Positions 1-40,479 of a stretch of 52,571 nucleotides of DNA are shown piece by piece (positions within the stretch are counted from its first letter, which is position 1; each line of letters begins with the position of its first letter). The notes beneath the pieces are model-generated. The model had not been told where the DNA came from. It saw only the letters and a program-made list of their open reading frames with translations, and searched no databases. The stretch lies in contig CAZFQD010000001.1 of NCBI GenBank assembly GCA_964520885.1, forward strand, positions 1 through 52,571. The letters run 5' to 3'. Made by a program: the position numbers and the translations under genes. The DNA comes from an uncultured Oscillospiraceae bacterium (GTDB lineage: Bacteria; Bacillota; Clostridia; Oscillospirales; SIG519).

Positions 1-55
1 AGAAAAATAATCTAATTACCCCCTTTATGAAGATAAATAGATTATACGTGAAAAA

Positions 56-1924
56 ATGACATATACAGCAGAAGAATATGATATTGCAGTTATTGGAGCA
101 GGGCATGCAGGTATTGAAGCCGCCCTTTGTTGTGCACGGCTCAATCTAAAAACTATACTTTTTACCATTAACTTAGATGCAGTAGGCAATATGCCTTGCA
201 ATCCATCAATAGGCGGCACTGCTAAGGGGCATTTAGTTTTTGAAATAGATGCTTTGGGTGGGCAAATGGGCAAAGTGGCAGATAAAACTTTTATTCAATC
301 AAGAATGCTAAATAAAGGTAAAGGTCCTGCTGTTCACAGCCTTAGAGTTCAGTCGGACAGGAGAGCCTATCAAGTTCTTATGAAGCATATCATTGAATTG
401 CAAGAAAACCTTGATTTAAAGCAAGCGGAAATAATAGATATTGGTGTTAAAAATGGCAAAGTAACCTCGGTTACTACTCATATTGGAGCAGTTCATAAGG
501 CAAAAGCAGTAATTATTTGCTCCGGAACATATTTAAAAGGCAAAATAATTGTTGGCGATTATGCTTATAGTGGCGGACCTGATGGAATGTTTCCTGCAAA
601 TAGCCTTTCGGATAAATTAAAGGATTTGGATATTGAACTTTTAAGATTTAAAACAGGAACACCTGCAAGAGTTTTAAAAAGCAGTATTGACTTTTCTCAA
701 ATGGAGGAACAAAAGGGAGATGATATTATTGTCCCATTTTCATCTGATACTGAGAATTTAGGACAAAACAAGGTTTCTTGTTATCTAACATATACTAATT
801 TGCAAACTCATAAAATAATTAAAGATAATTTGCACCGCTCCCCACTTTTTGGTGGGAAAATTGAGGGTGTTGGACCACGATATTGCCCAAGTATTGAAGA
901 TAAGGTTGTTCGTTTTGCCGATAAGCAAAGGCATCAACTTTTTATAGAGCCTATGGGTTTAAACACTGAAGAAATGTATGTTCAAGGTATGTCCTCGTCC
1001 TTGCCTGAGGATGTTCAACTTTTAATGCTTCGCTCAATTAAAGGTTTGCAAAAAGTAAAAATTATGCGTAATGCCTATGCTATTGAATATGACTGCGTAA
1101 ATCCATTAGAGCTATTGCCAACTTTGGAATTTAAAAAAACCAAAGGGCTTTATGGTGCAGGGCAATTTAATGGCACAAGCGGATATGAAGAGGCGGCGGC
1201 ACAAGGCTTAGTTGCAGGAATAAATGCCTCATTAAAACTAAAAAACAAAGAGCCTCTAATTTTAGATAGAAGTAGTTCTTATATTGGTATGCTAATTGAT
1301 GATTTAGTTACAAAGGGAACAAATGAACCTTACAGAGTTATGACCTCACGAAGTGAATATCGCCTTATATTAAGGCAAGATAATGCCGACGCAAGGCTTA
1401 CTCCAAAGGGCTATGAAATAGGGCTAATTTCAAAAGAGAGATATGAAAAGTTTTTACAAAAGCAAAAGTTAATAGAAAATGAAATAAGCAGAGCCGAAAA
1501 AGAGAATATACCTCCGACAAAAAAGTTAAATGAAATATTAATTGACAATGAAACTCAGGAATTATCAACAGGGGCAAAACTTGCCGATTTAATAAGGCGA
1601 CCACAATTAAACTATGAAAAATTATCTGAGATAGATAAAAAAAGGCCAAATCTAAAAAGCGAAATTTTTGAGAGTGCAGAAATAGCAATAAAATATGAGG
1701 GCTATATAAAAAGACAACTAATTCAAATTGAACAATTCAAAAAAATTGAGCAAAGAGAATTGCCAAAGGAAATAGATTATTCAAAAATAAAAGGGCTAAG
1801 AATTGAGGCAGGACAAAAATTAAACAAAATCAAGCCTTTAAATTTAGGTCAAGCCTCACGAATTTCGGGAGTAAGCCCTGCCGATATTTCTGTTTTGCTT
1901 ATTTACTTAGAGCAGAATAAGTGA
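56..1924 (+). CDS. mnmG: tRNA uridine 5-carboxymethylaminomethyl modification enzyme MnmG (GidA)
   Basis: 622-aa ORF with an N-terminal FAD fold ([15 protein letters not shown]), the family-typical CNPSIGG.AKGHLV.EIDALGG block and a full-length C-terminal helical domain. Confidence 0.95.
1739..1924 (+). repeat. Direct repeat copy 1: intact last 62 codons of mnmG (partner 8006-8191)
   Basis: Hand alignment to 8006-8191: 186 nt, no indels, 19 mismatches. Confidence 0.85.
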
Positions 1925-1961
1925 TATAATTAAGATATATTTAGTTAAATGGGGGATGATT

Positions 1962-4900
1962 ATGAAAATTAATAAAAAACTAATAAAAATAGTGTCAATT
2001 AATTTACTTACCCTTGTTTTTATATTTAGCAATATTTTTGCATCCTTTGTTATTGTTTCAGGAGAACAGGTAACGGTTAATGAAGTTATAAATATGATTG
2101 ACCAATTGCCAAATACTTACTCAGGGTTGCCATTAGTAAATGGTGAAATAGATGAGATTACTTATTCAACAAATGCTTTGCCGTTTATAAAAGATACTTC
2201 TGTTGCTTTTGAGGGAATTAATCCAATTAAGATTACCTCTGAGTCTGGTGGCAGTGATGAAACTACTTTCGGCAAAACATTTGCCTCTTCGCAAGATTTA
2301 TCCGATTTAGATAATATTGAAATGTTGCTTTGGTTTTATGAACAAAATCCTGAATTATATTTAAGCAGTTTTAGAATTGACTTAGTAACATCAGCGGGTA
2401 ATTATTTTTATAAGTATGTTGATGGTTCATATTGGAAAAGATGCCCCGGTGCATCAAGAATAAGATATAATATATCAGAATTTAAGATATATGGAAATCC
2501 GGATTTATCTAATATCAATAGTTTTAACTTGCGGATAAAAGGCGTTGACTATATGGTTGAGAGTTTAGGGCTTTTTTCCGTAACCTACAATGCAAGGAGC
2601 ACCCCAAAAGTAATACTTACCTTTGATGACGGATGGCAAGATAATTATGATAATGCTTTTCCTATTTTAGAAGCACAAGGTTTTAAAGGGGTATCTTATG
2701 CTGTAAGTGATTTCGTTCAAGGAAACGACCCTAATTATATGAGAAAACCAACCCTTGACATTCTTTACAATGCAGGCTGGGATATATCAAATCACTCAAA
2801 GCACCATGAAAATTATAAGATAACCCCCGGAGCAAATGCGGAATATATGGGGACAAGCTACAAAACTTGTCTTGACTTTCTTTTAGATTGTGGCTATGAG
2901 AGAAGTGCAAGATATGTTTGTTATCCGGATGGTAGTTTTGATGATGAATTAATTCCATATTTAAAGGATATAGGTATAGTTTCTGCAAGAACCACAAGAA
3001 TTGGCTATAATGCAGAGCCTTATACTGATTTGTACAAATTAAAACAGTATACAATTGGAGCTGTCACAACCTTTGGAGTTGACAATTCTTCTAATGATAT
3101 TAAAGCCTGTATTGACCGTGCAATTGCTTCGGGGCAAACTATGTCAGTAATGATGCACCGAGTTTCGCTTGATAACCAAATGAATATCTCAGGAGATAGC
3201 ACTAATTCTATAAAAACATCTGTAACTATGTTAACTCAAGTTGTTCAATATTTAAAAGATACAGGTGTTAAAGTTTGCACAATGAGTGAGTGGTATGATG
3301 AGCTACCCTCTATAAAAACATTAACTCTTTTTGATAAATATGATGTATATAATGCAAAAACAGCATATGACCAACTATATTCAGAGCAAAAAGCATTAGT
3401 TACAAATTATAAAAACCTTACCGACGCTATAATTAAAATAGAACAGCTTCAAGGTGAAGCATTGCAACAAGTTATTGATGAAATTTTTGCTTTGCCTTTA
3501 GTAGAAAACTTAACATTAACTGATAAATCGGCGATTATTAAAACAAGACAATATTATGAATTGTTAACGCAACAACAAAAGGAATTAGTTACTAATTATT
3601 CTATTCTTGTTGATGCCGAACAAGCAATTTATTATCTTGAAATAAATACTATTATAGAAAAAATAGATTTTTTGCCAAGTGTAGAAAATTTAGTTCTTTC
3701 GGATAAAACAAGAATAGCATCAATAAGAGAAAATTATAACAATTTAACTACCGAGCAAAAATTACTTGTAACAAATTATGATAAGCTTACAAGTTTAGAA
3801 GCTAAAATATTAATTCTTGAGGATAATGCAGTTTTTGAAATAATTGATTTAATTTATGCTTTGCCGGACATTCAATATTTGGTTCTTGAAGACAGAGCAT
3901 TCGTAGAAGAAGCAAGGGCAAAATATAATATATTAGATGATATTTTAAAAGTTCGTATTAGCAATTACGAAACACTTCAAAAAGCAGAATTATCAATTGA
4001 TAATCTTTTAGCAGAGCAAGTTGTTGATAAAATTAACGCATTACCAATTAACAATTCAGGTATAACTTTAATAAATGGGAAATTAGATGATATTACTTAT
4101 TCAACTAACACCTCGCAAATTATTAAAGACACTTCAGTTAGTTTTGAAGGAGCTTACCCTATTAAAATTACATCAGAAAGCGGGTCAAATATAACTCCAA
4201 CTACATTTGGAAAAACATTTGAATTTTCAAAAGATTTATCAGATTTAACTAATATCGAAATGTTACTTTGGTTTTATGAACAAAATCCCGAATTATATTT
4301 AAGCAGTTTTAGAATTGACTTAGTAACATCAGCGGGCAATTATTTTTATAAGTATGTTGATGGTTCGTATTGGAAAAGATGTCCCGGTGCATCAAGAATA
4401 AGATATAATATTTCAGAATTTTTAACAGTTGGTTCTCCCGATTTGTCTAATATCAATAGTTTTAACATACGAATTAAAGGTGCTGAAGGTATGATTGAGA
4501 GTTTGGGGATTTTTTCAATAGACTACAATGCAAGTAGCTCTCCAAAGGTAATTTTAACATTTGATGACGGATGGCAAGATAATTATGATAATGCTTTTCC
4601 TATTTTAGAAGCACAAGGTTTTAAAGGGGTATCTTATGCTGTAAGTGATTTCGTTCAAGGAAACGACCCTAATTATATGAGAAAACCAACCCTTGACATT
4701 CTTTACAATGCAGGCTGGGATATATCAAATCACTCAAAGCACCATGAAAATTATAAGATAACCCCCGGAGCAAATGCGGAATATATGGGGACAAGCTACA
4801 AAACTTGTCTTGACTTTCTTTTAGATTGTGGCTATGAGAGAAGTGCACGATTTTTAAGTTATACCGATAGCAATTCAGATGACGAATTAATTCCATATTT

Positions 4901-6158
4901 AAAAGATATGGGAATTGTTTCGGCAAGAACAACAAGAATAGGATATAATACAGAGCCCCCGGTGGACTTATATAAATTAAAGCAGATTACAATTGGGGCT
5001 GATACAACCTTTGGAGTTGACAATTCTTCTAATGATATTAAAGCTTGTATTGACCTTGCTATAGCCTCAGGGCAAACGATGGCAATAATGATGCATCGAG
5101 TTTCGCTTGATAGCCAAATGAATGCACCCGATGATTCTTCAAATTCAATAAAAACCTCAGTAACTATGTTAACTCAAGTTGCACAGTATTTAAAAGATAT
5201 AGGTGTTGAAGTTTGCACAATGAGTGATTGGTATAATGAATTAGAAACTACTGAAAAATTAACTCTTGCAAATAAAACAGAAGTGTCAGATGCAAGAGCT
5301 TCATATAATCAATTATCGCAAAGCCAAAAGGAATTTGTAACAAATTATAAAACTCTTTTAGTTGCCGAAACTATACTTTCACAATTATCTAATGAAGCCT
5401 TGCCAAAAGTAATTGATGAAATTTCGGCATTGCCTTCATTAGAAAACTTAAAGATAGAGCATAAATTTGCAATAGAAAAGGCAAGACAAGATTATGAATT
5501 TTTACCGTCAGAACAAAAGCCACTTGTTACAAACTATTCTAAACTTTTAGGAATAGAAAGCAAGTTTGAACAGCTTAATAATGCAGTAAATATTATTATT
5601 GGGTATGCCGACAATAATAACGCAAATTCATTGACCATTTCACAGTTATCAGCGGTTGGGGTAACCAAAGCTTATGAAGAAAATTTGGCAGAATACAAAA
5701 CTGAAATAGAAAACTCAACAGAAATTTCAGTAAACACAATTTCAAAAATCCAAGCAATAATTGACACAGTAAATACTCCAATAATAACTATAAATTCTTA
5801 TATAACTACCCAAACAAATCAAAATATTATAGTTACAGCTTCAACCAGTAAAGGAATACTAAATTCTTATAGTTATACTTTTACTAAAAATGGAAGTTTT
5901 GAATTTATTGCTACTTATAAAAATGAATATATTGTTAAAAAAACTGTTACAATTACAAATATAATTATTAAGGGCGATGTAACAGGTGATGGAATTGTAA
6001 ATGCACTTGATTTATTACAGCTTAAAAAACATCTTTTAGGCCAAGTATCAATAACAGGCAGTAAGGCTTTAGCGGCAGATGTAACAGGTGATGGCAAAAT
6101 AAACGCACTTGATTTGTTAAAACTTAAAAAATATCTTTTAGGTCAAGTTCAATTATGA
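1962..6158 (+). CDS. Secreted multidomain protein: 2 x [beta-rich module + NodB/CE4 polysaccharide deacetylase], helical linker repeats, Ig-like module, C-terminal dockerin
   Basis: Start moved to ATG 1962 (GGGGG RBS at 1951-1955; hydrophobic N-terminus MKINKKLIKIVSINLLTLVFIF). Two copies of TFDDGWQDNYD...SNHSKHH (NodB motifs 1-2). Repeated ~57-aa helical units contain QK.LVTNY. The C-terminus carries two DVTGDG.(I/V)NALDLL.LKK.LLG calcium-loop segments. Confidence 0.8.
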   Translation: MKINKKLIKIVSINLLTLVFIFSNIFASFVIVSGEQVTVNEVINMIDQLPNTYSGLPLVNGEIDEITYSTNALPFIKDTSVAFEGINPIKITSESGGSDETTFGKTFASSQDLSDLDNIEMLLWFYEQNPELYLSSFRIDLVTSAGNYFYKYVDGSYWKRCPGASRIRYNISEFKIYGNPDLSNINSFNLRIKGVDYMVESLGLFSVTYNARSTPKVILTFDDGWQDNYDNAFPILEAQGFKGVSYAVSDFVQGNDPNYMRKPTLDILYNAGWDISNHSKHHENYKITPGANAEYMGTSYKTCLDFLLDCGYERSARYVCYPDGSFDDELIPYLKDIGIVSARTTRIGYNAEPYTDLYKLKQYTIGAVTTFGVDNSSNDIKACIDRAIASGQTMSVMMHRVSLDNQMNISGDSTNSIKTSVTMLTQVVQYLKDTGVKVCTMSEWYDELPSIKTLTLFDKYDVYNAKTAYDQLYSEQKALVTNYKNLTDAIIKIEQLQGEALQQVIDEIFALPLVENLTLTDKSAIIKTRQYYELLTQQQKELVTNYSILVDAEQAIYYLEINTIIEKIDFLPSVENLVLSDKTRIASIRENYNNLTTEQKLLVTNYDKLTSLEAKILILEDNAVFEIIDLIYALPDIQYLVLEDRAFVEEARAKYNILDDILKVRISNYETLQKAELSIDNLLAEQVVDKINALPINNSGITLINGKLDDITYSTNTSQIIKDTSVSFEGAYPIKITSESGSNITPTTFGKTFEFSKDLSDLTNIEMLLWFYEQNPELYLSSFRIDLVTSAGNYFYKYVDGSYWKRCPGASRIRYNISEFLTVGSPDLSNINSFNIRIKGAEGMIESLGIFSIDYNASSSPKVILTFDDGWQDNYDNAFPILEAQGFKGVSYAVSDFVQGNDPNYMRKPTLDILYNAGWDISNHSKHHENYKITPGANAEYMGTSYKTCLDFLLDCGYERSARFLSYTDSNSDDELIPYLKDMGIVSARTTRIGYNTEPPVDLYKLKQITIGADTTFGVDNSSNDIKACIDLAIASGQTMAIMMHRVSLDSQMNAPDDSSNSIKTSVTMLTQVAQYLKDIGVEVCTMSDWYNELETTEKLTLANKTEVSDARASYNQLSQSQKEFVTNYKTLLVAETILSQLSNEALPKVIDEISALPSLENLKIEHKFAIEKARQDYEFLPSEQKPLVTNYSKLLGIESKFEQLNNAVNIIIGYADNNNANSLTISQLSAVGVTKAYEENLAEYKTEIENSTEISVNTISKIQAIIDTVNTPIITINSYITTQTNQNIIVTASTSKGILNSYSYTFTKNGSFEFIATYKNEYIVKKTVTITNIIIKGDVTGDGIVNALDLLQLKKHLLGQVSITGSKALAADVTGDGKINALDLLKLKKYLLGQVQL
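2622..2909 (+). repeat. Intragenic duplicate block, copy 1 (100% identical to 4560-4847)
   Basis: Base-by-base comparison: 288 nt identical at a constant offset of 1938 nt. Flanking sequence of the duplicated module is only ~75-96% identical. Confidence 0.95.
4560..4847 (+). repeat. Intragenic duplicate block, copy 2 (100% identical to 2622-2909)
   Basis: Same comparison as for copy 1; the block lies in the second NodB module. Confidence 0.95.
5973..6155 (+). other. Dockerin module (two EF-hand-like segments) at the C-terminus of the deacetylase protein
   Basis: GDVTGDGIVNALDLLQLKKHLLG ... ADVTGDGKINALDLLKLKKYLLG, the canonical duplicated dockerin pattern. Confidence 0.75.
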
Positions 6159-6172
6159 TGGGAGTGAAAAAT

Positions 6173-7948
6173 ATGAAAAAATTTATCTCTTTATTAGTAT
6201 CACTTTTAGTCTTTGGTTCAACATTAATGTTACCATCCTTTGCAACCTCTAAAAGCACAGTTATTTCATTGGTTCCCACAAATACAACTGTTAGAATAGG
6301 CGATACTATTACAATTACAGGTAAATTTAATGGAAATGCAATGGTGGGAACATTTAATGTTTATGTAAAATACAATGTCACACAATTACAATATAAAAGT
6401 GTTGAGGGTATCTCACCTTCAATAAAAGCCGGCGAACTTGATGCTGTTAGTAGTAGTGGTAGCATACAACTTTTATACCTTGATGCTGATGGTGGCGAAA
6501 CGGGTATACTATCTGCAAATGCTTTTAAGTTAACTTTTAAAGTGGTTGGCGGAAATGTTGGAGATACTATTTCTGTAAATACACAAGTTGATACAGTAGG
6601 CGATGTAAACGTAACTGAAGTGGAAACATCGGTAGTTGCTGCTACAATGAAAATAGCCGCACCACTTTCAACAAATAATTATCTAAGTAGTTTAAGCATA
6701 GATAACGGCACTCTTTCACCTTACTTTAAAAAAAGTGTAACTACTTATAATGTTTCTGTGCCGTTTACTGTTTCAAAGTTAAATGTAAATGCAAAAGCCG
6801 AGGACACTAATTCAAAAGTTTCTATAAATAACCCAACTCTTACACCTAATTCAACCACAAATATTACTGTGTTAGTTACTGCTCAAAATGGTGCTAAAAA
6901 AACTTATACAATTAAGGTGGCAAGAGCCAAAGACCCTAATTATCAGCAAAGTAGCAATAATTATCTTTCAAGTATAACAGTTAATCTTAGTATGCTTTCT
7001 CCAATTTTTAATAAAGATGTAACAAGTTATGTAGTTTGGTTGCCATATGAAACGGATAATATTGTGGTTGCAGGCACTGCCGAAAACAACAAAAGCACAG
7101 TAAGTGTTATCGGTGGTAGCAACTTAGAAGCGGGTAAAGATAATACTATTACACTTGTTTGCACAGCAGAAAATGGGGATGTTAAAACATACACCATAAT
7201 TGCTAAAAGAGCGTCAGAAGATTTTAGCCAAACTCCAACGCCAACGGGAACTCCAACCTCTTTAGATATTGAAAAGATTAAAAATGAAATCTCAGTTGCA
7301 CAAAAATCTCAAGTTAGCAAGACAGTAAATGTTGATTTAAGTAATAGCGGTTCAAAACTACTTGACAATTTATTTTTTAACCAACTTTCAAGTAGTAAAG
7401 ATGTAATAGTAAATATAAATTTAGGTGGAGCAAAAATAGTATTTGAGGGCAAAGAAACAACAGTTCTATCAGAGCAAAAAACCTATGATTTTTCATATGT
7501 TAATAATAGCCAATATAAAGATATAATGATAAAAGATGTAGGTAGTGAAAACGATATATTTACATATTCATTTGCTTATCACGGAGACTTGCAAGGATTT
7601 GCAACATTTAATATTTACACTAATTTTGTTTCTGGCGATAAGGTTAATGTTTATAAGTATGATGCAGAAAAACCACAATATATTTTAATTGCCCAAAACA
7701 TAACTGTTGGCACAGGTGGTGTGGTTACATACATTAATAACTCTTGCTCAGATTATTTAATTACAAAAAATACAATTGCAAATGCTTTAAAATCCGATGT
7801 TATTGCAAAACAGGTTTTGCAAAACACAAGTGATGATTTTTTATTAAATATAGTAATATTTGCTGTAATATGTGTATTAATTTTAGCATTAGGTATTTTT
7901 ATTGGATATAATATTAAAGTCAATAGAACACAAAACAATATAATTTAA
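6173..7948 (+). CDS. Membrane-anchored cohesin-domain protein with two cadherin-like beta-sandwich repeats
   Basis: Start moved to ATG 6173 (GGGAG RBS 6160-6164; signal peptide MKKFISLLVSLLVFGSTLMLPSFA). aa ~35-170 show a cohesin-like pattern (RIGDTITITGKFNGNAMVGTFNVYVKYN..LQYKSV; FKLTFKVVGGNVGDTISV). Two NNYLSS(L/I)..G.LSP.F...VT.Y.V.(V/L)P ... KTYTI units follow. There is a TP-rich linker and one C-terminal TM helix (IVIFAVICVLILALGIFIGY). Confidence 0.65.
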   Translation: MKKFISLLVSLLVFGSTLMLPSFATSKSTVISLVPTNTTVRIGDTITITGKFNGNAMVGTFNVYVKYNVTQLQYKSVEGISPSIKAGELDAVSSSGSIQLLYLDADGGETGILSANAFKLTFKVVGGNVGDTISVNTQVDTVGDVNVTEVETSVVAATMKIAAPLSTNNYLSSLSIDNGTLSPYFKKSVTTYNVSVPFTVSKLNVNAKAEDTNSKVSINNPTLTPNSTTNITVLVTAQNGAKKTYTIKVARAKDPNYQQSSNNYLSSITVNLSMLSPIFNKDVTSYVVWLPYETDNIVVAGTAENNKSTVSVIGGSNLEAGKDNTITLVCTAENGDVKTYTIIAKRASEDFSQTPTPTGTPTSLDIEKIKNEISVAQKSQVSKTVNVDLSNSGSKLLDNLFFNQLSSSKDVIVNINLGGAKIVFEGKETTVLSEQKTYDFSYVNNSQYKDIMIKDVGSENDIFTYSFAYHGDLQGFATFNIYTNFVSGDKVNVYKYDAEKPQYILIAQNITVGTGGVVTYINNSCSDYLITKNTIANALKSDVIAKQVLQNTSDDFLLNIVIFAVICVLILALGIFIGYNIKVNRTQNNII

Positions 7949-8005
7949 TTGTTTTTATATTTTACCTTAGTTTTTCATATTCCCTCATTATTAAAAATAT
8001 ATTTT

Positions 8006-8191
8006 AAAAAAATTGAGCAAAGAGAATTATCAAAGGAAATAGATTATTCAAAAATCTAAGGGCTTAGAATTGAGGCAGGGCAAAAACTAAACAAAAAAAA
8101 GCCTTTAAATTTAGGTCAAGCCTCGCGAATTTCGGGAGTAAGCCCGACGGATATTTCGGTTTTGCTAATATATTTAGAGCAGAATAAATAA
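8006..8191 (+). pseudogene. mnmG: Displaced remnant of the mnmG 3' end (direct repeat copy 2)
   Basis: Collinear with 1739-1924 (167/186 nt identical). In-frame TAA at 8057-8059. No upstream gene body. Confidence 0.85.
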
Positions 8192-8360
8192 TGATATGAA
8201 TGTAATGAGGAATTAGGAATGAGAAATTTAGGTGACAAAATTTTTTTCTTTATTATGTTATTTTCTTATATCTTTTAGGCTAAGGGTGAATGGTTAAAGT
8301 TTAATGACAAAAATGTTATTCTACAACTAAATTGTCATTGCGAGTGTAACGAAGCAATCT
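8192..8360 (+). repeat. Composite intergenic repeat: heptamer array + conserved core + palindrome
   Basis: Heptamer units GAATGTA/ATGAGGA/ATTAGGA/ATGAGAA (8198-8232). Core ATTTAGGTGACAAAATTTTTTTCTTTAT (8226-8253). Palindromic GTCATTGCGAGTGTAACGAAGCAATC (8334-8359), which recurs at 24572-24597. Confidence 0.6.
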
Positions 8361-8448: not shown

Positions 8449-8517
8449 ATAAAAGTTAAAGAATAAAAGGAGGGCAGAATAGAACTTTAACTTAAAATTA
8501 AATAATAGAATATTTAA

Positions 8518-8672
8518 AGCGCCAGAACCGAAATTTTTTATCGGTTGACGAGGAAAGGGATTATCGAAATTATCGGCGGATACCCTTCGGCTATTTGCGT
8601 AATGGTCGTTAGGCTTTTTGTAAAAATTATGGGTAACCATAAAACAAAGCAAAAGCCAATACTACGCAATTT
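8518..8672 (+). ncRNA. glmS ribozyme: glmS ribozyme (GlcN6P-dependent self-cleaving riboswitch)
   Basis: Conserved core strings in order: A|GCGCCAGAAC, CCGA..TCGG hairpin, GGTTGACGAGGA, TATCGAAATTATCGGCGGATACCC, and closing helix TTGCGTA...TACGCAA. It lies immediately 5' of glmS. Confidence 0.85.
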
Positions 8673-8727: not shown

Positions 8728-10539
8728 ATGTGCGGAATAGTTGGATATATTGGCGATAAAGAATGTTCAGATATATTAATAGAAGGCTTAAAGAAATTAG
8801 AATATAGAGGCTACGACTCTGCTGGAATAGCAGTATTTGACCATAATATTAATGTTGTAAAAGTAAAAGGAAGATTGGCAAATTTAGAAAATAAAATAAA
8901 AAATGAGGGAACTCCAAAGGGCAAAGTTGGAATTGGACACACGCGGTGGGCTACTCACGGAGAGCCATCTGATGTAAATTCCCATCCGCATTGTAGTGGA
9001 AAGGTTGTTATAGTTCATAATGGAATTATTGAAAACTACTCTGCTTTAAAACAGCATATGCAAGAGCATAATAGAAAATTTGTTTCAGCAACTGATACTG
9101 AAGTTGTTGCTCATTTGATTGACTTTTATTATGAGGGTGACCCATTAGAAGCAATATTTAAAGCAACAAGTAGAATTAGAGGCTCATATGCTTTAGGGAT
9201 ATTATTTGAAGATATTCAGGATAAAATATTTGCTATTAGAAAGGATAGTCCTTTGGTTGTGGGAATTGGAAAGGGAGAAAACTTTATAGCATCCGATATG
9301 CCTGCAATTTTATCTAAAACAAGAGAGTATTATTTAATTGAAGAGGGCGAATTGGCAGTTTTAACTAAGGATAATATTACGATTTATAATCAAGATAAAG
9401 AAGAAATCAATAAGGAAATAACAACTGCAACTTGGGATGTTGAGGCCGCTGAAAAGGGTGGCTATCCTCACTTTATGTTAAAGGAAATTTATGAACAACC
9501 GAAAGCTTTGAAAAATACTATTAATCCGCGAATAGCAGGTGGTATTCACAATATTTTGTCGGAAGAACTAATTGACACTTCAAATATTAAACGAATTAAC
9601 ATTATTGCTTGTGGCTCTGCAATGCATACCGGTCTTTTAGGAAAATATGCATTTGAAAGATTAGCAAGAATTCCTGTTAATGTAGATGTTGCATCGGAAT
9701 TTCGTTATAGGGACCCCGTTTTATCAGATGGAGACATTGTTTTAATAATATCTCAATCGGGAGAAACAGCGGATTCTTTGGCGGCACTTAGATTAGCAAA
9801 AAGTAGAAACATTCCTACCATAGCAATTGTTAATGTTGTGGGTTCATCTATTGCAAGAGAAGCCGATTCGGTTATTTATTTTCAAGCAGGTCCCGAAATT
9901 GCTGTTGCCACTACAAAGGCTTTTACTTGCCAAACCGCAGTTTTATATCTATTTGCACTAAGATTAGCAATTGACAATAAAACAATTAGTGAACAACGGG
10001 CAAATGAAATTTTAGACGCATTATTGTCCGTCCCAAATGCTGTTGAAGAAATATTAAAGAATATTGAGCATTACCAACATTTAGCTTCATTTAATCAAAA
10101 TATTCATAACCTTTTCTTTATTGGCAGAGGGCAAGATAATGCTCTTTGCTGTGAAGGCTCATTAAAGCTCAAAGAAATATCCTATATGCACAGTGAGGCA
10201 TACGCCGCAGGAGAATTAAAGCACGGAACAATATCCTTAATTTATGACGGTGTGCCTGTTATTGCAGTTGCAACAGAAGATGTGCTTATGGAAAAAACAA
10301 TAAGCAATATTAAAGAGGTTAAAGCAAGAGGGGCTACTGTAACATTTATGTGCAAAAAGGGTGCTGTTAAGGACGGCGATTTTTATGACCATCTTATTGA
10401 ATTGCCAATTTTAGATGAATTTGTTATGCCAATTTTGGCAATCGTGCCTTTGCAAGTTTTTGCTTATTATACTGCTATATATAAGGGCTGTGATGTTGAT
10501 AAGCCAAGGAATTTAGCAAAATCAGTTACAGTTGAATAA
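8728..10539 (+). CDS. glmS: Glutamine--fructose-6-phosphate aminotransferase (isomerizing)
   Basis: True start is MCGIVGYIG (catalytic Cys2). Two SIS domains are present (SQSGETADS) and the C-terminus is ..AKSVTVE. The upstream part of the 8545 track ORF is the ribozyme. Confidence 0.95.
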   Translation: MCGIVGYIGDKECSDILIEGLKKLEYRGYDSAGIAVFDHNINVVKVKGRLANLENKIKNEGTPKGKVGIGHTRWATHGEPSDVNSHPHCSGKVVIVHNGIIENYSALKQHMQEHNRKFVSATDTEVVAHLIDFYYEGDPLEAIFKATSRIRGSYALGILFEDIQDKIFAIRKDSPLVVGIGKGENFIASDMPAILSKTREYYLIEEGELAVLTKDNITIYNQDKEEINKEITTATWDVEAAEKGGYPHFMLKEIYEQPKALKNTINPRIAGGIHNILSEELIDTSNIKRINIIACGSAMHTGLLGKYAFERLARIPVNVDVASEFRYRDPVLSDGDIVLIISQSGETADSLAALRLAKSRNIPTIAIVNVVGSSIAREADSVIYFQAGPEIAVATTKAFTCQTAVLYLFALRLAIDNKTISEQRANEILDALLSVPNAVEEILKNIEHYQHLASFNQNIHNLFFIGRGQDNALCCEGSLKLKEISYMHSEAYAAGELKHGTISLIYDGVPVIAVATEDVLMEKTISNIKEVKARGATVTFMCKKGAVKDGDFYDHLIELPILDEFVMPILAIVPLQVFAYYTAIYKGCDVDKPRNLAKSVTVE

Positions 10540-12503: not shown

Positions 12504-12540
12504 AACCATAAACTTTTTTATTTCATATATTATTATTAAT

Positions 12541-29963: not shown

Positions 29964-32753
29964 ATGCCACAGGATTACAATCAAACTTTAAACCTGCCAA
30001 AAACGGATTTTCCAATGAGGGCAGGTTTGCCACAAAGAGAGCCGGAATTATTAAATAAATGGTCGCAAGAAAAATTATATGAAAATATTTTAAAGCAAAA
30101 CAATGAAAAGCCACTTTACATTTTGCATGATGGACCGCCTTATGCTAATGGCGACATTCATATAGGACACGCATTAAATAAAGTTTTAAAGGACATTGTT
30201 GTTAGATATAAAAATATGTCAGGTTTTAAGGCTCCTTATGTTCCCGGCTGGGATACTCATGGCTTGCCTATTGAACTTCAAGCTATAAAAAGCTTAGGAA
30301 TAAATAGAGCAAATACTGATGTATTGGAGTTTAGAAAGCATTGCAAGGATTTTGCATTAAAATATGTAGCAAATCAAAAAGAACAATTTAAAAGGCTCGG
30401 TGTAATTGGCGATTGGGATAATCCCTATTTAACTTTACAACCTGAATTTGAAACAAAGCAAATAGAAATTTTCGGTGAAATGGCTAAAAAAGGGTATATT
30501 TATAAGGGCTTAAAGCCTGTTTATTGGTGCCCCCACGATGAAACTGCTCTTGCAGAAGCAGAAATAGAATATGCTGAAGATACAAATAATTCTGTATTTG
30601 TAAAGTTTAAAGTAACAGATGATAAAGGCAAATTGACTGCTTTAACTAATGAAAAGTGCGACAATATGTATTTTGTTATTTGGACTACTACAATATGGAC
30701 TTTGCCGGGCAATGTTGCTATTTGTGTTGGACCTAAATATAAATACTCTCTTGTTAAATGTAATAATGAAATTTTAATATTAGCAAACGAATTAATAAAA
30801 AGTGTAATGAAAGCCACAAACATTGATGATTATAAGGTTTTAGCCGAAATAAACGGAAAAGACCTTGAATTAATGAGTACACAACATCCTTTTTTAGACA
30901 AGCAATCACTTGTTATAGTTGGTGACCATGTAACTTTAGAAGCTGGAACAGGTTGTGTTCACACAGCACCGGGACACGGTGTGGATGACTTTATTGTTTG
31001 CCAAAATTATAAACAACTAAAAATAGTAGTCCCCGTTGATAATAAAGGGGTTATGATTGCTGATGCCGGAAAGTTTGCTGGGCTTTATTATAAAAAAGCA
31101 AACAAGGCAATTTTTGAAGATTTGCAGGAAACAAATGCACTTTTAGCAACAGAAACAATAATTCACCAATACCCTCATTGTTGGAGATGTAAAAGCCCGA
31201 TTTTGTTTAGAGCGACGGAACAATGGTTTTGTTCAGTAGAAGATTTTAAAGAGCAAGCTATAAAGGCTTGTCATAGTGCCAAATGGGTTCCTGCTTGGGG
31301 CGAGGATAGAATTGTAAGTATGATTAAGGATAGAAATGATTGGTGCATTTCAAGGCAAAGAGTTTGGGGCGTTCCAATTCCTGTTTTCTATTGCAAAAAA
31401 TGCGGAAAATATATTATTAATGATGAAACTATTAATGCCGTATCAGAAAAATTTAGATTAGAAGGCTCTGATGCTTGGTATAAATATAGTGCAAAAGAAC
31501 TTTTGCCAAATGGTATTTCTTGTGAATGTGGGCATACTGAATTTAGAAAAGAAACTGATATTATGGATGTTTGGTTTGATAGTGGCTCCTCTCATAAAGC
31601 AGTGCTTGAAACAAGAGAGGGTTTAACAAGCCCTGCTGATATGTATTTAGAAGGGAATGACCAATATAGAGGTTGGTTTCAGTCCTCTTTGTTGACTTCG
31701 GTAGCAACAAGCGGAATTGCTCCTTATAAAACAGTTTTAACTCATGGCTTTGTAGTGGATAAAGAAGGTAAAAAAATGTCCAAATCACAAGGCAATGTTA
31801 TTAGTCCACTTGATATAATAAAAGAATATGGGGCAGATATTTTAAGGCTTTGGGTGGCAAGTTCTGATTATACTGTGGATGTGAGGATTTCAAATGATAT
31901 TTTAAAGCAGTTATCTGAGGTTTACAGAAAAATAAGAAACACCGCAAGATTTATTTTAGGAAATATTAATGATTTTAATCCAGATAATGATATGGTGGAA
32001 TATTCAAAAATGCCAGAACTTGATAAATGGGCATTAATCAAACTTAATGCCTTAATTGAAAAGGTTAACAAAGCATATAACGAGTATGAATACCACACTG
32101 TTTATCACTCTATTCACAATTTTTGCGTTGTTGATATGTCGAATTTTTATCTTGATATAATAAAGGATAGGTTATATTGCGAAAACGCCTCTTCGGTTGA
32201 TAGAAGAACTGCTCAAACGGTAATGTATATTATACTTGATGCGTTGGTTAAAATACTCTCGCCCGTGCTTTGCTTTTCTGCTGAGGAAATTTGGCAGTTT
32301 ATGCCTCATACAAGTGATGTAAAAAAACAAAGTATTTCCTTTAACCAAATCCCAAAGATTAATACTCTATATGTAGATAATATAATTTCAGAGCAATTTG
32401 ATAAACTCTTAGAAATAAGAGAGGATGTTAAAAAAGTTCTTGAAATAGCAAGAACAGCAAAAACAATTGGCTCTTCGCTTGAAGCGAAATTGGTTATTTA
32501 TTGCAATCAAGAAAAATACGATTTTCTAAACGGAATTGAAGACTTTTTAACAACCGCCTTTATTACCTCACAAGTGCAACTTGTAAAGGGAGAAAACAAG
32601 GACGCATTTATAGGCGAGTATAGTGGAATTGCTGTTGAAGTTAAAAAAGCCGACGGCTTAAAATGTGAACGATGCTGGGTATTTAGCACAACGGTAGGGC
32701 AAAGCGAAAAGCACCCGACGCTTTGTGAAAGATGTACAAAAGTAGTCGGTTAG
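29964..32753 (+). CDS. ileS: Isoleucine--tRNA ligase
   Basis: HIGH motif (PYANGDIHIGHALNK), KMSKS motif (GKKMSKSQGN) and a C-terminal zinc-finger CERCW...CERC. Confidence 0.95.
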   Translation: MPQDYNQTLNLPKTDFPMRAGLPQREPELLNKWSQEKLYENILKQNNEKPLYILHDGPPYANGDIHIGHALNKVLKDIVVRYKNMSGFKAPYVPGWDTHGLPIELQAIKSLGINRANTDVLEFRKHCKDFALKYVANQKEQFKRLGVIGDWDNPYLTLQPEFETKQIEIFGEMAKKGYIYKGLKPVYWCPHDETALAEAEIEYAEDTNNSVFVKFKVTDDKGKLTALTNEKCDNMYFVIWTTTIWTLPGNVAICVGPKYKYSLVKCNNEILILANELIKSVMKATNIDDYKVLAEINGKDLELMSTQHPFLDKQSLVIVGDHVTLEAGTGCVHTAPGHGVDDFIVCQNYKQLKIVVPVDNKGVMIADAGKFAGLYYKKANKAIFEDLQETNALLATETIIHQYPHCWRCKSPILFRATEQWFCSVEDFKEQAIKACHSAKWVPAWGEDRIVSMIKDRNDWCISRQRVWGVPIPVFYCKKCGKYIINDETINAVSEKFRLEGSDAWYKYSAKELLPNGISCECGHTEFRKETDIMDVWFDSGSSHKAVLETREGLTSPADMYLEGNDQYRGWFQSSLLTSVATSGIAPYKTVLTHGFVVDKEGKKMSKSQGNVISPLDIIKEYGADILRLWVASSDYTVDVRISNDILKQLSEVYRKIRNTARFILGNINDFNPDNDMVEYSKMPELDKWALIKLNALIEKVNKAYNEYEYHTVYHSIHNFCVVDMSNFYLDIIKDRLYCENASSVDRRTAQTVMYIILDALVKILSPVLCFSAEEIWQFMPHTSDVKKQSISFNQIPKINTLYVDNIISEQFDKLLEIREDVKKVLEIARTAKTIGSSLEAKLVIYCNQEKYDFLNGIEDFLTTAFITSQVQLVKGENKDAFIGEYSGIAVEVKKADGLKCERCWVFSTTVGQSEKHPTLCERCTKVVG

Positions 32754-32802
32754 GAGTTAGTAATGAAATGATAAATGACAATTGTTTAAAGGAGATGAAG
32801 AA

Positions 32803-33069
32803 ATGCCTGAACTTTGCAGATTTGAAGGTATGATAATTAAACTTATTTTTGGCGATAATGTTCAACATAACAAGCCACATATACATGTTTATTTTGCAGA
32901 ATTTGAAGCTTCAGTTGGAATAGATGGTGAACTATTATCAGGTTCATTACCGGTAAAAAAACTAACAATTTTACAGGCTTGGATGATATTACACGAAGAT
33001 GAACTTTATAAAGCTTGGAATAAAGCAGTAAGAAACGAGCCTTTTGGTAAAATTGAGCCTTTAAGATAG
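32803..33069 (+). CDS. DUF4160 family protein
   Basis: Start at ATG 32803 after an AAGGAG RBS. MPELCRFEGMIIKLIFGDNVQHNKPHIHVYF is the family-typical N-terminus. Confidence 0.75.
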   Translation: MPELCRFEGMIIKLIFGDNVQHNKPHIHVYFAEFEASVGIDGELLSGSLPVKKLTILQAWMILHEDELYKAWNKAVRNEPFGKIEPLR

Positions 33070-33081
33070 GAGGTATTCAAC

Positions 33082-33381
33082 ATGTATATTATTGACGGTA
33101 TTGCTTATGCAGGTGAGCCAAAGCCCCCCATAATTGTTAAGGCGGCTCGCTCACTTGACGACTATAAATTATGGATTCGTTTTGCAAATAATGAGGAAAA
33201 AATATTTAATTTTACACCTCTTTTAAATTATCCCTGTTATACTCCTTTAAAAGATAAATCCGTGTTTGATAAAGTGTATATAGATTTTGGTTGTCCAGTT
33301 TGGAACAATGGAGAAATTGATATTGCTCCGGAATTACTTTATAAAGATGGAATGCCAACAGGAGAAAATACCAATTCTTAA
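33082..33381 (+). CDS. DUF2442 family protein
   Basis: 99 aa. LWIRFANNEEKIFNF..LL and W.NGEIDIAPELLY are typical of DUF2442. A GGAGG RBS is present and the gene lies 12 nt after the DUF4160 gene. Confidence 0.75.
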   Translation: MYIIDGIAYAGEPKPPIIVKAARSLDDYKLWIRFANNEEKIFNFTPLLNYPCYTPLKDKSVFDKVYIDFGCPVWNNGEIDIAPELLYKDGMPTGENTNS

Positions 33382-33398
33382 TTGGCACATAATTCTTC

Positions 33399-33472
33399 AG
33401 CATAACAGTAGGGCAAAGCGAAAAGCACCCGACGCTTTGTGAAAGATGTGCAAAAGTAGTTGGTTAGGAGTT
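33399..33472 (+). pseudogene. ileS: Displaced copy of the ileS 3' end (partner 32685-32758)
   Basis: 74 nt with 4 mismatches and no indels. Includes the TAG stop and the first heptamer unit. Confidence 0.85.
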
Positions 33473-33505
33473 GGGAATTAGGATTTAGGAATTAAGAATA
33501 AAATT
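33464..33505 (+). repeat. Heptamer array (TTAGGAG/TTGGGAA/TTAGGAT/TTAGGAA/TTAAGAA)
   Basis: Six consecutive 7-nt units read directly from the sequence. Confidence 0.55.
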
Positions 33506-36762: not shown

Positions 36763-36823
36763 TTTTGCTTAATCAATACTCAACCACTCTTAACTCCTCG
36801 TTCCTAATTCCTAACTGTTATTA

Positions 36824-36889
36824 ATCAATTAACTAAAACCCCATTATCATTTTGCAGTAAAATCAATATATCCTCTTCATTGCCATTTT
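36824..36889 (-). pseudogene. ypeB: Displaced copy of the ypeB 3' end (partner 39129-39194)
   Basis: 66 nt with a single mismatch, which is synonymous (GGA/GGC) in the ypeB frame. Same orientation as the intact copy. Confidence 0.85.
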
Positions 36890-39058: not shown

Positions 39059-39129
39059 TCTCATTTGTGCAAACAATTTTTTTGTACAAACTTCCCATTT
39101 TTAATATAATTATGCATTATTTTCTTTTA

Positions 39130-40479
39130 TCAATTAACTAAAACCCCATTATCATTTTGCAGTAAAATCAATATATCCTCTTCATTTCCATTTTTTGCGT
39201 TTATATATATTAACATATTTTTATCGTCAATAGTTTTACATTTAAATTCATAGCAAAGTCGTTCAACTTTTCCCGGAGTTGGTATAATACATAGCTCACT
39301 TCCTTCAATTTTTAAAGAAGGGCTAACTTTTTTTTCTGCTTGTGCTTTGGTTAAAATTGGAGTTACATCTCTATTTGTAGTATGATTCATTAAATATCCA
39401 TTTGCTTCAAAACTCATAATTTTACCATCATTTAAAGAAACACCCACCTTAATTAAATCGGGATAACATATTGCATTATCTAATACATAAGCGAAATTAA
39501 TTGTTAAAATATTATTGCCTTCATAATAATAGCTTTCTTTCATATTTTTATAATTCTTGCTAATTAAAAACCCTTGTGCTTTCTTAATTGCTTGCTCAAA
39601 ACTAATATTTTTAGCGGTAATAGCAGCACTATTTAACATACTATAAACAAATCCGCCCTGCCGAGTAATTTCAATTGAAACAGTTCCACTATTAAACGAA
39701 AAGGTGGGAATTAAACCATTAGTTTCGCCTACATAAACGATATTTTCAATATTTACATTTAAAAATTCCGCCGCCTTTTTTTTAGCATTTACATTAGAAA
39801 ATTGAGGTTGATTTTTTAGCATTGTAGGGGATAAGTTTTCTAAATGCTCGCTAAATGGTCCATCATAAATTAATTTTGGGTAACTTGCAATATCCTCTTC
39901 AATTTTAGCCATTTCACTTGTTAAACTTATGGCATTCTCATTGCCGTTTTTTTCAGTGTTTTTAATTAAATTTAATAGTTCATTATTTTTTAGATTTCCA
40001 TTTTGCACCTCGCTTTGCAAGAAACTAATTTGTGTTGCTAAAATTGTGGCTTCATCCGAAAGGTTTTTCAAAGTTTCTCTATCTTGTTCGTTAATTACTC
40101 CACCCTCTAAAACTTTCCTCGATAAAGAATTCACATACTCACCTGTTTGAGATAAAAATTTTGCTGTTCCCATTAAATTAGAAGCATAAAAAGGCAATGC
40201 CGAAATGCTTTCCTTTGCAGCACTGGTTGTTTTCCAAATTTGACTTGCCAAACCCACTAACTGCAATGAAGAATTTGCATATAGGCCCTTTTGCAAAGTG
40301 GCATCAATAGTATTCATATATTCCGATAATTGTGCAAATGAGCCTTGATAGGTATAGCTAATATATCGTCTGTAAATTGAAGATTGAACAAAAAAGGTAA
40401 GTGCAAAACCAGCTATAACTGCCATTAAGGATACAGTATAGCTTATTATTCTAATTAATTGTCTTCTTGTTAAATGCAT
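39130..40479 (-). CDS. ypeB: Spore germination protein YpeB (PepSY-domain)
   Basis: 449 aa. N-terminal TM anchor, the YpeB-type N-domain (SFAQLSEYMNTIDATLQKGLYANS) and C-terminal PepSY repeats. Confidence 0.8.
   Translation of the reverse strand: MHLTRRQLIRIISYTVSLMAVIAGFALTFFVQSSIYRRYISYTYQGSFAQLSEYMNTIDATLQKGLYANSSLQLVGLASQIWKTTSAAKESISALPFYASNLMGTAKFLSQTGEYVNSLSRKVLEGGVINEQDRETLKNLSDEATILATQISFLQSEVQNGNLKNNELLNLIKNTEKNGNENAISLTSEMAKIEEDIASYPKLIYDGPFSEHLENLSPTMLKNQPQFSNVNAKKKAAEFLNVNIENIVYVGETNGLIPTFSFNSGTVSIEITRQGGFVYSMLNSAAITAKNISFEQAIKKAQGFLISKNYKNMKESYYYEGNNILTINFAYVLDNAICYPDLIKVGVSLNDGKIMSFEANGYLMNHTTNRDVTPILTKAQAEKKVSPSLKIEGSELCIIPTPGKVERLCYEFKCKTIDDKNMLIYINAKNGNEEDILILLQNDNGVLVN

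Follow-up and report, generated by a model that had tools for sequence, protein, structure and literature searches.

A displaced copy of the mnmG 3′ end behind a dockerin–cohesin gene pair: a possible scar of gene acquisition in an uncultured clostridial genome

How do two genes for predicted cell-surface proteins come to lie between an intact mnmG gene and a second, diverged copy of the mnmG 3′ end? In the stretch of DNA analyzed here (52,571 nt; hereafter, the window), a direct repeat of the mnmG 3′ end (89% identical and ungapped by MAFFT and a repeat finder; E = 1e-67 by self-BLAST) encloses an interval of 6.08 kb (hereafter, the islet; Table 1). Between positions 1739–1924 and 8006–8191, 167 of the 186 nucleotides are identical, with zero indels, and the 17 codons that differ comprise 12 synonymous, 3 missense, 1 nonsense, and 1 stop-to-stop changes. 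These values, first given in an earlier note made from the sequence by eye, were reproduced exactly by a recount over the same coordinates. From the proximal to the distal copy, the missense changes are P→S, I→K, and A→T, the nonsense change replaces a Lys codon with TAA, and the stop codon changes from TGA to TAA. Homology between the copies runs one base beyond the stop codon and then ends. To the left of position 8003, similarity to mnmG is zero, and the spacer that precedes the distal copy resembles neither mnmG nor anything else in the window. A block of 23 nt at the left edge of the repeat is identical in both copies.

Table 1. Coordinates of the mnmG locus and of the two parallel cases in the window
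Feature	Position	Strand	Basis
mnmG, intact, 622 aa	56..1924	+	Pfam GIDA, GIDA_C_1st, SAM_GIDA_C, all full length
Proximal repeat copy: functional last 62 mnmG codons and stop	1736..1925	+	
ORF1: predicted secreted protein, one polysaccharide deacetylase domain in each of two tandem halves, type I dockerin at the end	1962..6158	+	
ORF2: predicted signal peptide, cohesin, two cadherin-like domains, C-terminal membrane anchor	6173..7948	+	
Spacer from ORF2 stop to distal repeat; right-hand novel junction at its end	7949..8002	+	
Distal repeat copy: displaced, dead mnmG 3′ fragment, TAA in frame at 8057–8059, substitutions at three residues non-conservative	8003..8192	+	
Intergenic repeats typical of the genome, directly after the distal copy	8201..8360	+	
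glmS ribozyme/riboswitch	8507..8667	+	Rfam RF00234, 115 bits
glmS, 603 aa, start at MCGIVG	8728..10539	+	Pfam GATase_6/7, SIS
ileS case: proximal copy, last 24 ileS codons and 11 nt	32682..32764	+	
ileS case: insert, DUF4160 and DUF2442 gene pair	32803..33381	+	
ileS case: distal 3′-end copy, 76/83 identical, heptamer array next	33396..33478	+	
ypeB case: distal 3′-end copy, 67/69 identical, then heptamer array and terminator	36821..36889	-	
ypeB case: insert, LRR_5–dockerin protein gene	37066..38781	-	
ypeB case: proximal copy, last 21 ypeB codons and stop	39126..39194	-	

The pattern of substitutions indicates where the two copies diverged. Nei–Gojobori counts (S = 39.3, N = 143.7, Sd = 13.5, Nd = 4.5) give dS = 0.46, dN = 0.032, and omega = 0.07. 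So many synonymous changes would be expected with P = 5.6e-7 if both copies had evolved neutrally, and with P = 2e-4 if one had been neutral and the other constrained. This codon-aware test had been proposed in the earlier note, and its significant synonymous bias bears out the claim made there that the two ends diverged mostly as parts of functional mnmG genes, and not by local duplication followed by decay.

Several features identify the copy that has since lost its function. At all three amino-acid differences the proximal copy carries the homologue-consensus residue (P, I/V/L, and A, respectively), whereas the distal residues are rare among 119 homologues (S, 5/119; K, 0/119; T, 1/119), which marks the distal copy as dead. 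Together with the in-frame TAA, these residues uphold, on sequence grounds, the description of the distal copy as a displaced, decaying remnant. The fragment is unchanged in two contigs from other samples (L080 and L082), and the MnmG protein is 100% identical in five such contigs. Both copies share a Gly residue, within EAGQ, that occurs in 0/119 homologues, which makes them sister alleles of related lineages. The sole usable outgroup, a relative with 77% MnmG identity that is uniform along the gene, is equidistant from the proximal and distal copies (130/186 and 128/186, respectively), and so cannot decide which is native, as the earlier note had hoped such a comparison would. No intact MnmG with the distal allele was found in a search of 5.8 billion proteins.

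The islet contains two genes only, with spacers of 31 and 54 nt. ORF1 begins 31–37 nt past the mnmG stop codon (an alternative start is at 1956), with no terminator between them, and its two halves form an internal repeat with a spacing of 1938 nt. Pfam detects PF01522 (Polysacc_deac_1) twice and PF00404 (Dockerin_1; E = 1.3e-18, residues 1339–1395), the two calcium-binding repeats of the dockerin being encoded at 5976–6046 and 6078–6148. An alternative ATG of ORF2, at 6155, overlaps the ORF1 stop codon (ATGA), and the islet genes are probably co-transcribed with mnmG. The cadherin-like domains of ORF2 match PF12733, and its translation ends in a hydrophobic helix. The cohesin domain (PF00963; 29.6 bits vs. 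a cutoff of 24.1, E = 8.9e-7, profile positions 4–139 of 139) is detected only in a scan restricted to the N-terminal 176 aa, has no sequence match to solved cohesins in PDB, and yielded a single-sequence structure model too poor to use (pLDDT 42). The cargo, a matched dockerin enzyme and anchored cohesin protein, is thus predicted from its domain content to be a small cell-surface display module. The Pfam scan of the islet returned only these deacetylase–dockerin and cohesin genes, which agrees with the report in the earlier note of no integrase in the islet, and no recombinase or integrase was found elsewhere in the window. The GC content (0.31) and GC3 (0.18–0.20) of the islet are indistinguishable from those of the rest of the window, consistent with parents that were close relatives.

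Directly to the right of the distal copy lie intergenic repeats that combine an array of (GGAATKA)n heptamers with TTGTCATTGCGAGTGTAACGAAGCAATCT and a degenerate GGTATCAAAAC...TTTCTTTAT-like motif; the composite recurs at 24505–24604 and in L075. A promoter scan places a promoter-like site at 8420–8448, near the glmS ribozyme. One contig (L081) has a differing sequence upstream of glmS, but this is an artefact, a high-GC chimeric assembly joined at the ATG. The junctions mnmG–ORF1, ORF1–ORF2, and ORF2–remnant–glmS are each present in independent contigs of other samples. Exact-protein look-ups with MnmG, GlmS, ORF2, and a 233-aa HTH protein recovered same-species contigs that are all occupied and essentially clonal. 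In other same-species contigs the mnmG–ORF1 block has alternative flanks, so the history of the locus is more complex than a single event.

Relatives organize this region differently. Loci were collected by an MnmG scan of one genome per GTDB species (74 loci; best match, 66% identical), by a scan of JGI metagenomes (80 loci, one of them from the same species), and by the 5.8-billion-protein search, in which the nearest proteins are 81% and 77% identical. Both of these nearest relatives have the order mnmG–rsmG–noc–parA–parB, with neither islet nor glmS, and neither the islet nor glmS follows mnmG at any of the 74 genome loci, the 80 metagenome loci, or the two nearest contexts. Synteny of islet and mnmG across the clade, which the earlier note had listed as an outcome against acquisition, is therefore not seen. 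That note had also suggested a search for an empty site, in which mnmG is followed directly by the flank from 8192 onward, and had counted its absence among relatives against its reading; formally that is the outcome, as the same loci and contexts contain no uninterrupted junction, but with the nearest relative only 81% identical in protein this is a weak test. No donor-type locus and no intact gene with the distal allele occurs in any collection searched, so that neither parent has been observed. The best homologue of ORF1 sits in an unrelated polysaccharide locus, and no ORF1 homologue adjoins mnmG or a cohesin gene.

We favor, with a probability of about 0.5, the reading that the mnmG structure is the scar of homology-anchored, integrase-free recombination between related lineages that carried different genes downstream of mnmG. 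In one parental lineage mnmG would have been followed by ORF1–ORF2, and in the other, which would have supplied the distal copy, by the glmS leader and glmS. Incoming mnmG–ORF1–ORF2 DNA would have paired with the resident mnmG, the homologous side resolving inside mnmG and the non-homologous side, 54–57 nt past ORF2, being linked, by illegitimate joining, to the resident gene 186 nt ahead of its stop codon. Such a process would be homology-facilitated illegitimate recombination (HFIR), and a Campbell-type single crossover of a circularized fragment would be an equivalent route. The outcome would be an intact mnmG with the incoming 3′ end, two new genes, and a resident 3′ end shifted downstream, which would have lost its function and then gained the stop codon and three damaging substitutions. 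Homology would end at the stop codon because the parents had just the coding sequence in common. The locus fits the HFIR-type layout in that an intact gene is followed by foreign DNA and by a co-oriented displaced fragment with its own downstream flank, and the two mnmG ends behave as alleles of different lineages by their omega, dS, and shared derived Gly. The reading in the earlier note is partly supported: the ends are of the allele type, but arrival of the islet with a foreign mnmG terminus, and the mechanism, are not established, no empty site having been found.

The mnmG structure itself is real, but two like structures in the window, at ileS and ypeB, had been missed; a protein-level self-search finds only these three displaced 3′ ends. 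All three inserts are co-oriented with the target gene and recombinase-free, the layout is likewise of the HFIR type at ileS and ypeB, and the three target genes are different and have no common core. Inspection of the ends of the three cassettes by eye revealed no convincing common motif or inverted repeat. The ileS copies differ by 3 synonymous, 2 non-synonymous, and 2 non-coding changes, and the inserted gene pair has GC3 values of 0.18 (DUF4160) and 0.22 (DUF2442); a search for the empty site at ileS reached a relative with 85% identity, the contig of which stops 50 nt past ileS. The ypeB copies differ by 1 synonymous and 1 non-coding change, and the C-terminal module of the inserted LRR_5–dockerin protein resembles that of ORF1. 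Both cases are statistically compatible with plain long target duplication and subsequent decay. Their presence makes a dedicated site-specific element less likely as the mechanism. Were the illegitimate process purely random, 5′ fragments of downstream genes would be expected as well; all three fragments here are 3′ ends of upstream genes, which at n = 3 is not significant.

Such an element is nevertheless the first alternative to be weighed. The islet may have originated as a site-specific integrative element, of the kind that e14 and phage 21 represent in icd, that entered mnmG at about 1739 with a substitute 3′ end and has since degraded, the integrase and other genes having been lost later or supplied in trans. 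The e14 benchmark is close: a direct repeat of the 3′ end with 90–93% identity and no indels, a displaced copy at the far end, and differences that are mostly synonymous (10:2 in e14 vs. 13.5:4.5 at mnmG). At mnmG the repeats of the target 3′ end are attL/attR-like, the gene is restored by the proximal copy, and the identical 23-nt block occupies the left edge of the repeat, the place expected for a crossover core. We nonetheless consider this origin unlikely. Integrase, excisionase, and phage genes are all absent from the islet; its two intact cargo genes fill the interval, leaving 31 and 54 nt to spare and no room for remnants; and comparison with plasmids, phages, and IMG/VR viral contigs gave no match. 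No repeat of a tRNA 3′ end occurs in the window, and the three structures in 52 kb involve three target genes with no shared core and no recombinase.

It is slightly less likely still that nothing was inserted, and that the distal fragment is the rest of a second complete mnmG, a paralogue or xenologue upstream of glmS, of which all but the last 186 nt was deleted after both copies had long been functional. The synonymous-biased divergence is accounted for equally well in this way, as is a glmS flank that adjoins mnmG in no relative, and the mnmG–ORF1 block seems to occur in two contexts within the species, perhaps because each genome has two copies. The scenario requires two events, however, and an extended time during which two mnmG genes functioned, and it would have to apply again to ileS and ypeB, normally present as single copies; in all three cases the shared orientation and the tight spacing directly behind co-oriented inserts fit an insertion scar better.

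A more speculative extension, which we regard as doubtful, is that the mnmG, ileS, and ypeB structures represent a class of integrase-free "baited" cassettes that carry the last 60–190 nt of a housekeeping gene and cycle by release and reinvasion. Host homologous recombination between the flanking repeats would loop the cassette out, after which a single crossover, again at that gene, would carry it into related genomes, each entry restoring the target gene and leaving the resident end behind. To our knowledge, no evidence for such a cycle has been presented so far, and, if the idea is true, the mnmG repeats, with their allele-type divergence, would provide the first trace of it. A release-and-reinvade cycle has been proposed for inserts with long target duplications (PMC2853133).

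The direction of transfer assumed in the favored reading could also be reversed, with the islet resident and a glmS-side fragment from an islet-free relative incoming, its left end lying 186 nt inside the donor mnmG. The final structure is symmetric as to the incoming side, and the outgroup does not polarize the alleles; even so, this version is improbable, as it adds no gene and requires three separate fixations within 52 kb, each through drift or hitch-hiking, whereas the forward direction brings selectable cargo each time. Least probable is islet insertion with a 186-nt target duplication in one genome, the copies being identical at first and diverging in place: inserts of <20 kb without mobility genes and with direct repeats of 30–420 bp are documented (PMC2853133), the mnmG locus is of this size (6.08 kb insert, 186–190 nt repeats, no mobility genes), and the ileS and ypeB cases fit well, but 13–14 of the 18 coding differences at mnmG are synonymous when about 6 are expected with the distal copy neutral and the proximal copy constrained (P = 2e-4), and by hand calculation the non-synonymous load of the dead copy (~0.03 per site) predicts just ~2.5 synonymous differences.

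The displaced mnmG tail is a known kind of event that occurs three times in a window of 52 kb, which suggests that this route is a major way of gene gain for the genome. Accessory surface genes (dockerin enzymes and a cohesin anchor) would in this manner be added right behind essential genes, without mobile-element machinery, in uncultured low-GC Clostridia, and the fragment left behind would preserve a record of the event and of how far the donor had diverged. In metagenome-assembled genomes, displaced 3′ fragments could be used generally to mark such acquisitions without recourse to annotation.

The cargo and its insertion can each be compared with known systems. As in cellulosome pairs, ORF1 carries a type I dockerin at its end, and ORF2, which is membrane-anchored, opens with a predicted cohesin domain. 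The enzyme that bears the dockerin is a double polysaccharide deacetylase, not a glycoside hydrolase, and the cohesin assignment comes from a single Pfam match just over threshold.

Prophage e14 (and phage 21) occupies icd of E. coli K-12, with icdC as the displaced pseudogene (PMC13626634). As at icd, mnmG keeps working with a replaced 3′ end, and beyond the insert the old end persists as a direct repeat. The two pairs of repeats are of comparable length and identity (165 nt and 92.7% for icd/icdC, with 153/165 positions identical and 10 synonymous and 2 non-synonymous changes; 186 nt and 89.8% for mnmG), and both are indel-free and mostly synonymous in their differences. In contrast, e14 spans 15 kb, carries intE and xisE along with phage genes, and excises site-specifically, whereas the mnmG islet is 6 kb of cargo without a recombinase, and the displaced mnmG copy is already inactivated by a stop codon. 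The benchmark calls for caution: because integrases make the same sequence pattern, with nearly the same numbers, the pattern by itself cannot assign a mechanism.

"Insertion with long target duplication" has been described for restriction-modification genes by Nobusato, Furuta, and Kobayashi, and the repeats of several published cases overlap a gene at its 3′ end (PMC2853133). The mnmG insert is likewise <20 kb and without mobility genes, and its direct repeats far exceed transposon target duplications. The long-target-duplication repeats come from one target and are near-identical, whereas those of mnmG show allele-type, synonymous-biased divergence, and the cargo here consists of surface proteins instead of restriction-modification genes.

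[quoted passage not shown] These loci encode toxin/immunity functions and their 3′ ends are variable and selected, whereas at mnmG a housekeeping 3′ end is conserved and unrelated genes lie past the stop codon. In both settings, a conserved gene part anchors the incoming DNA, no dedicated recombinase is present, and the old 3′ end and its sequel are shifted downstream in the same orientation.

The mnmG coding sequence occupies positions 56–1924, and its last part occurs again 6267 nt further on, in the same orientation. A repeat finder places the two copies at 1736–1925 and 8003–8192 (89% identical, ungapped; self-BLAST E = 1e-67), and in a MAFFT alignment identity begins abruptly at 1736/8003 and ceases one base past the stop codon. 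Between 1739–1924 and 8006–8191, 167 of 186 positions are identical and 17 codons differ: 12 synonymously, three by missense changes (P→S, I→K, A→T), one by AAA→TAA (8057–8059) and one by a TGA→TAA change of stop codon. The recount reproduced all figures given for the repeat in the earlier note (coordinates, identity and codon classes). Nei–Gojobori counts (S = 39.3, N = 143.7, Sd = 13.5, Nd = 4.5) give dS = 0.46, dN = 0.032 and ω = 0.07. The synonymous excess has P = 5.6e-7 under a model in which both copies are unconstrained, and P = 2e-4 under a model in which one copy decays freely and the other is under selection. Under random placement of the observed substitution spectrum, synonymous changes average 4.3, and in none of 20,000 trials did they reach 13. 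The repeat is real and significant.

Both copies were compared with 119 MnmG homologues. Wherever the two differ by a missense change, the proximal copy carries the residue most common among the homologues (P in 111, I in 77 [I, V or L in 113] and A in 112), and the residues of the distal copy, which also has the stop codon, are rare (S in 5, K in 0 and T in 1). The amino-acid changes therefore arose on the distal copy after its function was lost. Together with ω = 0.07, these residues support the earlier claim of two diverged functional alleles, the distal one displaced. Because the Gly of ‘EAGQKL’ is common to both copies and occurs in none of the 119 homologues (R in 96), the copies are sister alleles whose lineages were closely related; they are not a native gene and a distant foreign one. 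By the Nei–Gojobori counts, non-synonymous changes in the dead distal copy amount to about 0.03 per site, a load that by hand estimate would account for only some 2.5 of the 13.5 synonymous differences; on this estimate, the remaining divergence (dS roughly 0.3) must be older than the displacement.

The interval between the copies is filled by two genes, ORF1 and ORF2 (see table), with 31–37 nt to spare after the mnmG stop codon and 54–57 nt before the distal copy, and its GC and GC3 match those of the window. Its description as a cohesin/dockerin islet is correct, given the type I dockerin of ORF1 and the PF00963 match of ORF2 (29.6 bits against a cutoff of 24.1, with the first 176 residues scanned alone). 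The N-terminal domain of ORF2 has no PDB sequence match and is a putative cohesin, a thin call. As previously noted, the islet has no integrase or recombinase gene; no integrase or transposase was found in the rest of the window either, which is ordinary core chromosome (spo0A, miaB, mutS, mutL, miaA, sepF, divIVA, ileS, ypeB and others). No terminator was found between mnmG and glmS, and the distal copy is followed by intergenic repeats, a promoter-like site, the glmS ribozyme and glmS.

Coordinates of genes, flanks and displaced gene ends (window positions unless a same-species contig from another sample, L075–L083, is named)
Feature	Coordinates	Strand	Description
ORF1	1962–6158 (alternative start 1956)	+	Two tandem halves, polysaccharide deacetylase domain in each; C-terminal type I dockerin
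ORF2	6173–7948 (upstream ATG 6155 overlaps ORF1 stop)	+	Signal peptide, cohesin (putative), two cadherin-like domains, C-terminal membrane helix
Promoter-like site, strong	8420–8448		Between distal mnmG copy and glmS ribozyme
glmS ribozyme	8507–8667		115 bits
glmS	8728–10539		Downstream of ribozyme
Left flank up1	Window 1–48; L076 1–135; L083
Left flank up2	L075 9271–10000; L077		tRNA-Arg and three Gut-1 RNA copies
Right flank ORF2–remnant–glmS	Window; L082
Right flank Z	L076 6246–6385; L083		Unrelated to ORF2
ileS proximal copy	32682–32764		Last 72 nt (24 codons) plus 11 nt; ileS ends at 32753
ileS distal copy	33396–33478		714 nt downstream; 76/83 identical
ypeB proximal copy	39126–39194	−	Last 63 nt (21 codons) plus a few bases; stop 39130–39132
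ypeB distal copy	36821–36889	−	2305 nt downstream; 67/69 identical
LRR_5–dockerin gene	37066–38781	−	Between ypeB repeats; C-terminal module 44–57% identical to that of ORF1

A further promoter-like site lies across the mnmG stop codon (1902–1930; TTTACT, 17 nt spacer, TG-extended TATAAT), with its −35 hexamer within the proximal repeat and its −10 hexamer in the first islet bases; the distal copy has neither hexamer. The distal fragment is in the frame of ORF2, and no other stop interrupts this frame between the ORF2 stop codon and the TAA at 8057 (7949–8059). Read-through would add 36 residues, and the in-frame remnant is probably a coincidence.

The species is sparse in public data (samples containing it are SRR8437287, SRR8437278, the runs behind ERZ27248920/965/885, and JGI 3300028191 and Ga0268285), and the collections searched lack congeners at 85–99% ANI. 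Scans for MnmG reached a best identity of 66% with one genome per GTDB species; in JGI metagenomes they gave a single contig of this species, and all other matches were at most 63% identical. A protein search found relatives at 81% (P0002), 77% (P0003) and next about 71%, and the protein's own 90% cluster has a single member. At about 150 mnmG loci, no homologue of ORF1, ORF2 or glmS follows the gene, and the loci of the two nearest relatives read mnmG–rsmG–noc–parA–parB; synteny of the islet with mnmG across the clade, which would speak against insertion, was thus not seen. The relatives' loci indicate that mnmG ancestrally neighboured neither the islet nor glmS. Among ORF1 homologues, the best match (62% over one half) lies in a polysaccharide-synthesis locus and shares its sample of origin with the 77% relative; three others are also far from any mnmG or cohesin gene. 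No islet matches were found in plasmids, phages or viral contigs.

The protein search did not find the distal allele in any intact MnmG protein. That a second full-length mnmG was once present and later lost would fit two alleles that diverged as functional genes, and is considered unlikely. The earlier proposal to recognize the native copy by comparison with a relative's mnmG was carried out with the 77% relative and favoured neither copy (130 and 128 of 186 positions shared with the proximal and distal copies); its identity along the whole gene is flat, at about 70%, and it is therefore uninformative on both polarity and mosaicism. A reverse polarity, with the glmS side as the incoming DNA, is improbable.

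Contigs from several samples share, at 100% identity, a block that begins 7–9 nt ahead of the mnmG start codon and ends with the ORF1 stop. Among same-species contigs, this block has two unrelated left and two unrelated right flanks, and its breakpoints are sharp (7–9 nt before the mnmG ATG; ORF1 stop/ORF2 ATG at 6157/6158). L076 and L083 stop about 135–140 nt past both breakpoints, the leftover expected at a branch of a k = 141 assembly graph. The block is either present in two copies per genome or carried by two coexisting strain types. At least one independent contig supports each junction of the structure, and the whole is spanned by the window only. Within 4619–4791, 32 positions of the window disagree with three other contigs, and the window's ORF1 halves are 100% identical over about 200 nt (4600–4800 and 2662–2862), with adjoining segments at 81–92%; the patch reflects either gene conversion or assembly collapse. 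In L075, tRNA-Arg(ACG) followed by three Rfam Gut-1 RNA motif copies (9426–9872) lies just upstream of mnmG, and two of these copies are within an exact 90-nt direct repeat. L081 1–183 (an ENA contig) was rejected as a locus variant, being high-GC sequence joined exactly at the glmS ATG by chimeric assembly.

Repeats were sought across the whole window and, at the protein level, by a self-search; exactly three displaced gene fragments emerged, at mnmG, ileS and ypeB, each the 3′ end of the upstream gene and co-oriented with it. The ileS copies differ by three synonymous and two non-synonymous changes and at two positions past the stop codon, and enclose a DUF4160/DUF2442 gene pair in the same layout as at mnmG. 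Each time, homology runs out at the stop codon (+1 nt in mnmG, +11 in ileS, +4 in ypeB), the distal copy is followed by a (GGAATTA)n-type heptamer array of the kind that fills many intergenic regions of the genome, and no recombinase was found; the three left boundaries have no core sequence in common. The ileS and ypeB cases are statistically compatible with any model, and judged by the differences counted, only mnmG has enough to indicate allele-type divergence. The LRR–dockerin gene also contains about seven tandem 69-nt (23-residue) units, 63–77% mutually identical (37731–38508).

A composite intergenic repeat family (8201–8360, 18651–18869, 24485–24604, 27471–27545; also L075 intergenic regions) is built of variable heptamers in tandem, such as (GGAATGA)n or (AATTGTT)n, adjoining GGTATCAAAACTATTTTCTTTAT, often with TTGTCATTGCGAGTGAAACGAAGCAATCT, and has zero matches in shuffled sequence. 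REP-like hairpins (GGAACGCATTGTATGCGTTCC) in an inverted pair flank a fragment translating to ‘...YYDHIIRNKKDYKEIYEYIENNPLKWENDKYYCK*’ (27211–27470, 22417–22525, 19509–19547), which we take to resemble REP-associated tyrosine transposases; two shorter copies of this 3′ fragment occur in other intergenic regions. Immediately upstream of a P-type cation ATPase gene (12554–15217) is a NiCo riboswitch (12533–12617, 60 bits); since the listed ATG of this gene is inside the riboswitch, the true start is probably further downstream.

The earlier claims that the islet was inserted with a foreign terminus, and by a Campbell-type or site-specific route, remain inferences. Capture of DNA from a relative by host recombination is favoured, with moderate confidence, because with dedicated site-specific elements one would have to assume three different integrases, each lost without trace. 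Confidence is limited by the likeness to the e14 benchmark given below, by the less likely readings of a reverse polarity and of a lost second full-length mnmG, and by the fact that neither parental arrangement turned up in the collections searched. Incoming DNA from a relative with mnmG–ORF1–ORF2 would pair with the resident mnmG; one end would resolve by homology inside the gene, and the other would join illegitimately at a point 186 nt short of the resident stop codon, as in homology-facilitated illegitimate recombination. A single crossover of a circularised fragment would be an alternative. Either route would restore mnmG, add the cargo and displace the resident end, and homology would stop at the stop codon because the parents had only coding sequence in common.

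[quoted passage not shown] Element e14 in icd of E. coli K-12 served as benchmark for integrase-made displacement (PMC13626634): the 165-nt icd end that it carries matches the displaced icdC at 153 of 165 positions, with no indels, 10 synonymous and two non-synonymous changes. This is the same signature as that of the mnmG repeat, though integrase-made, and the pattern therefore proves two alleles, one displaced, and not which enzyme acted. The interest of the mnmG case lies in the recurrence of displacement in this genome and the absence of any mobility gene; the displacement itself belongs to an already known kind of event.
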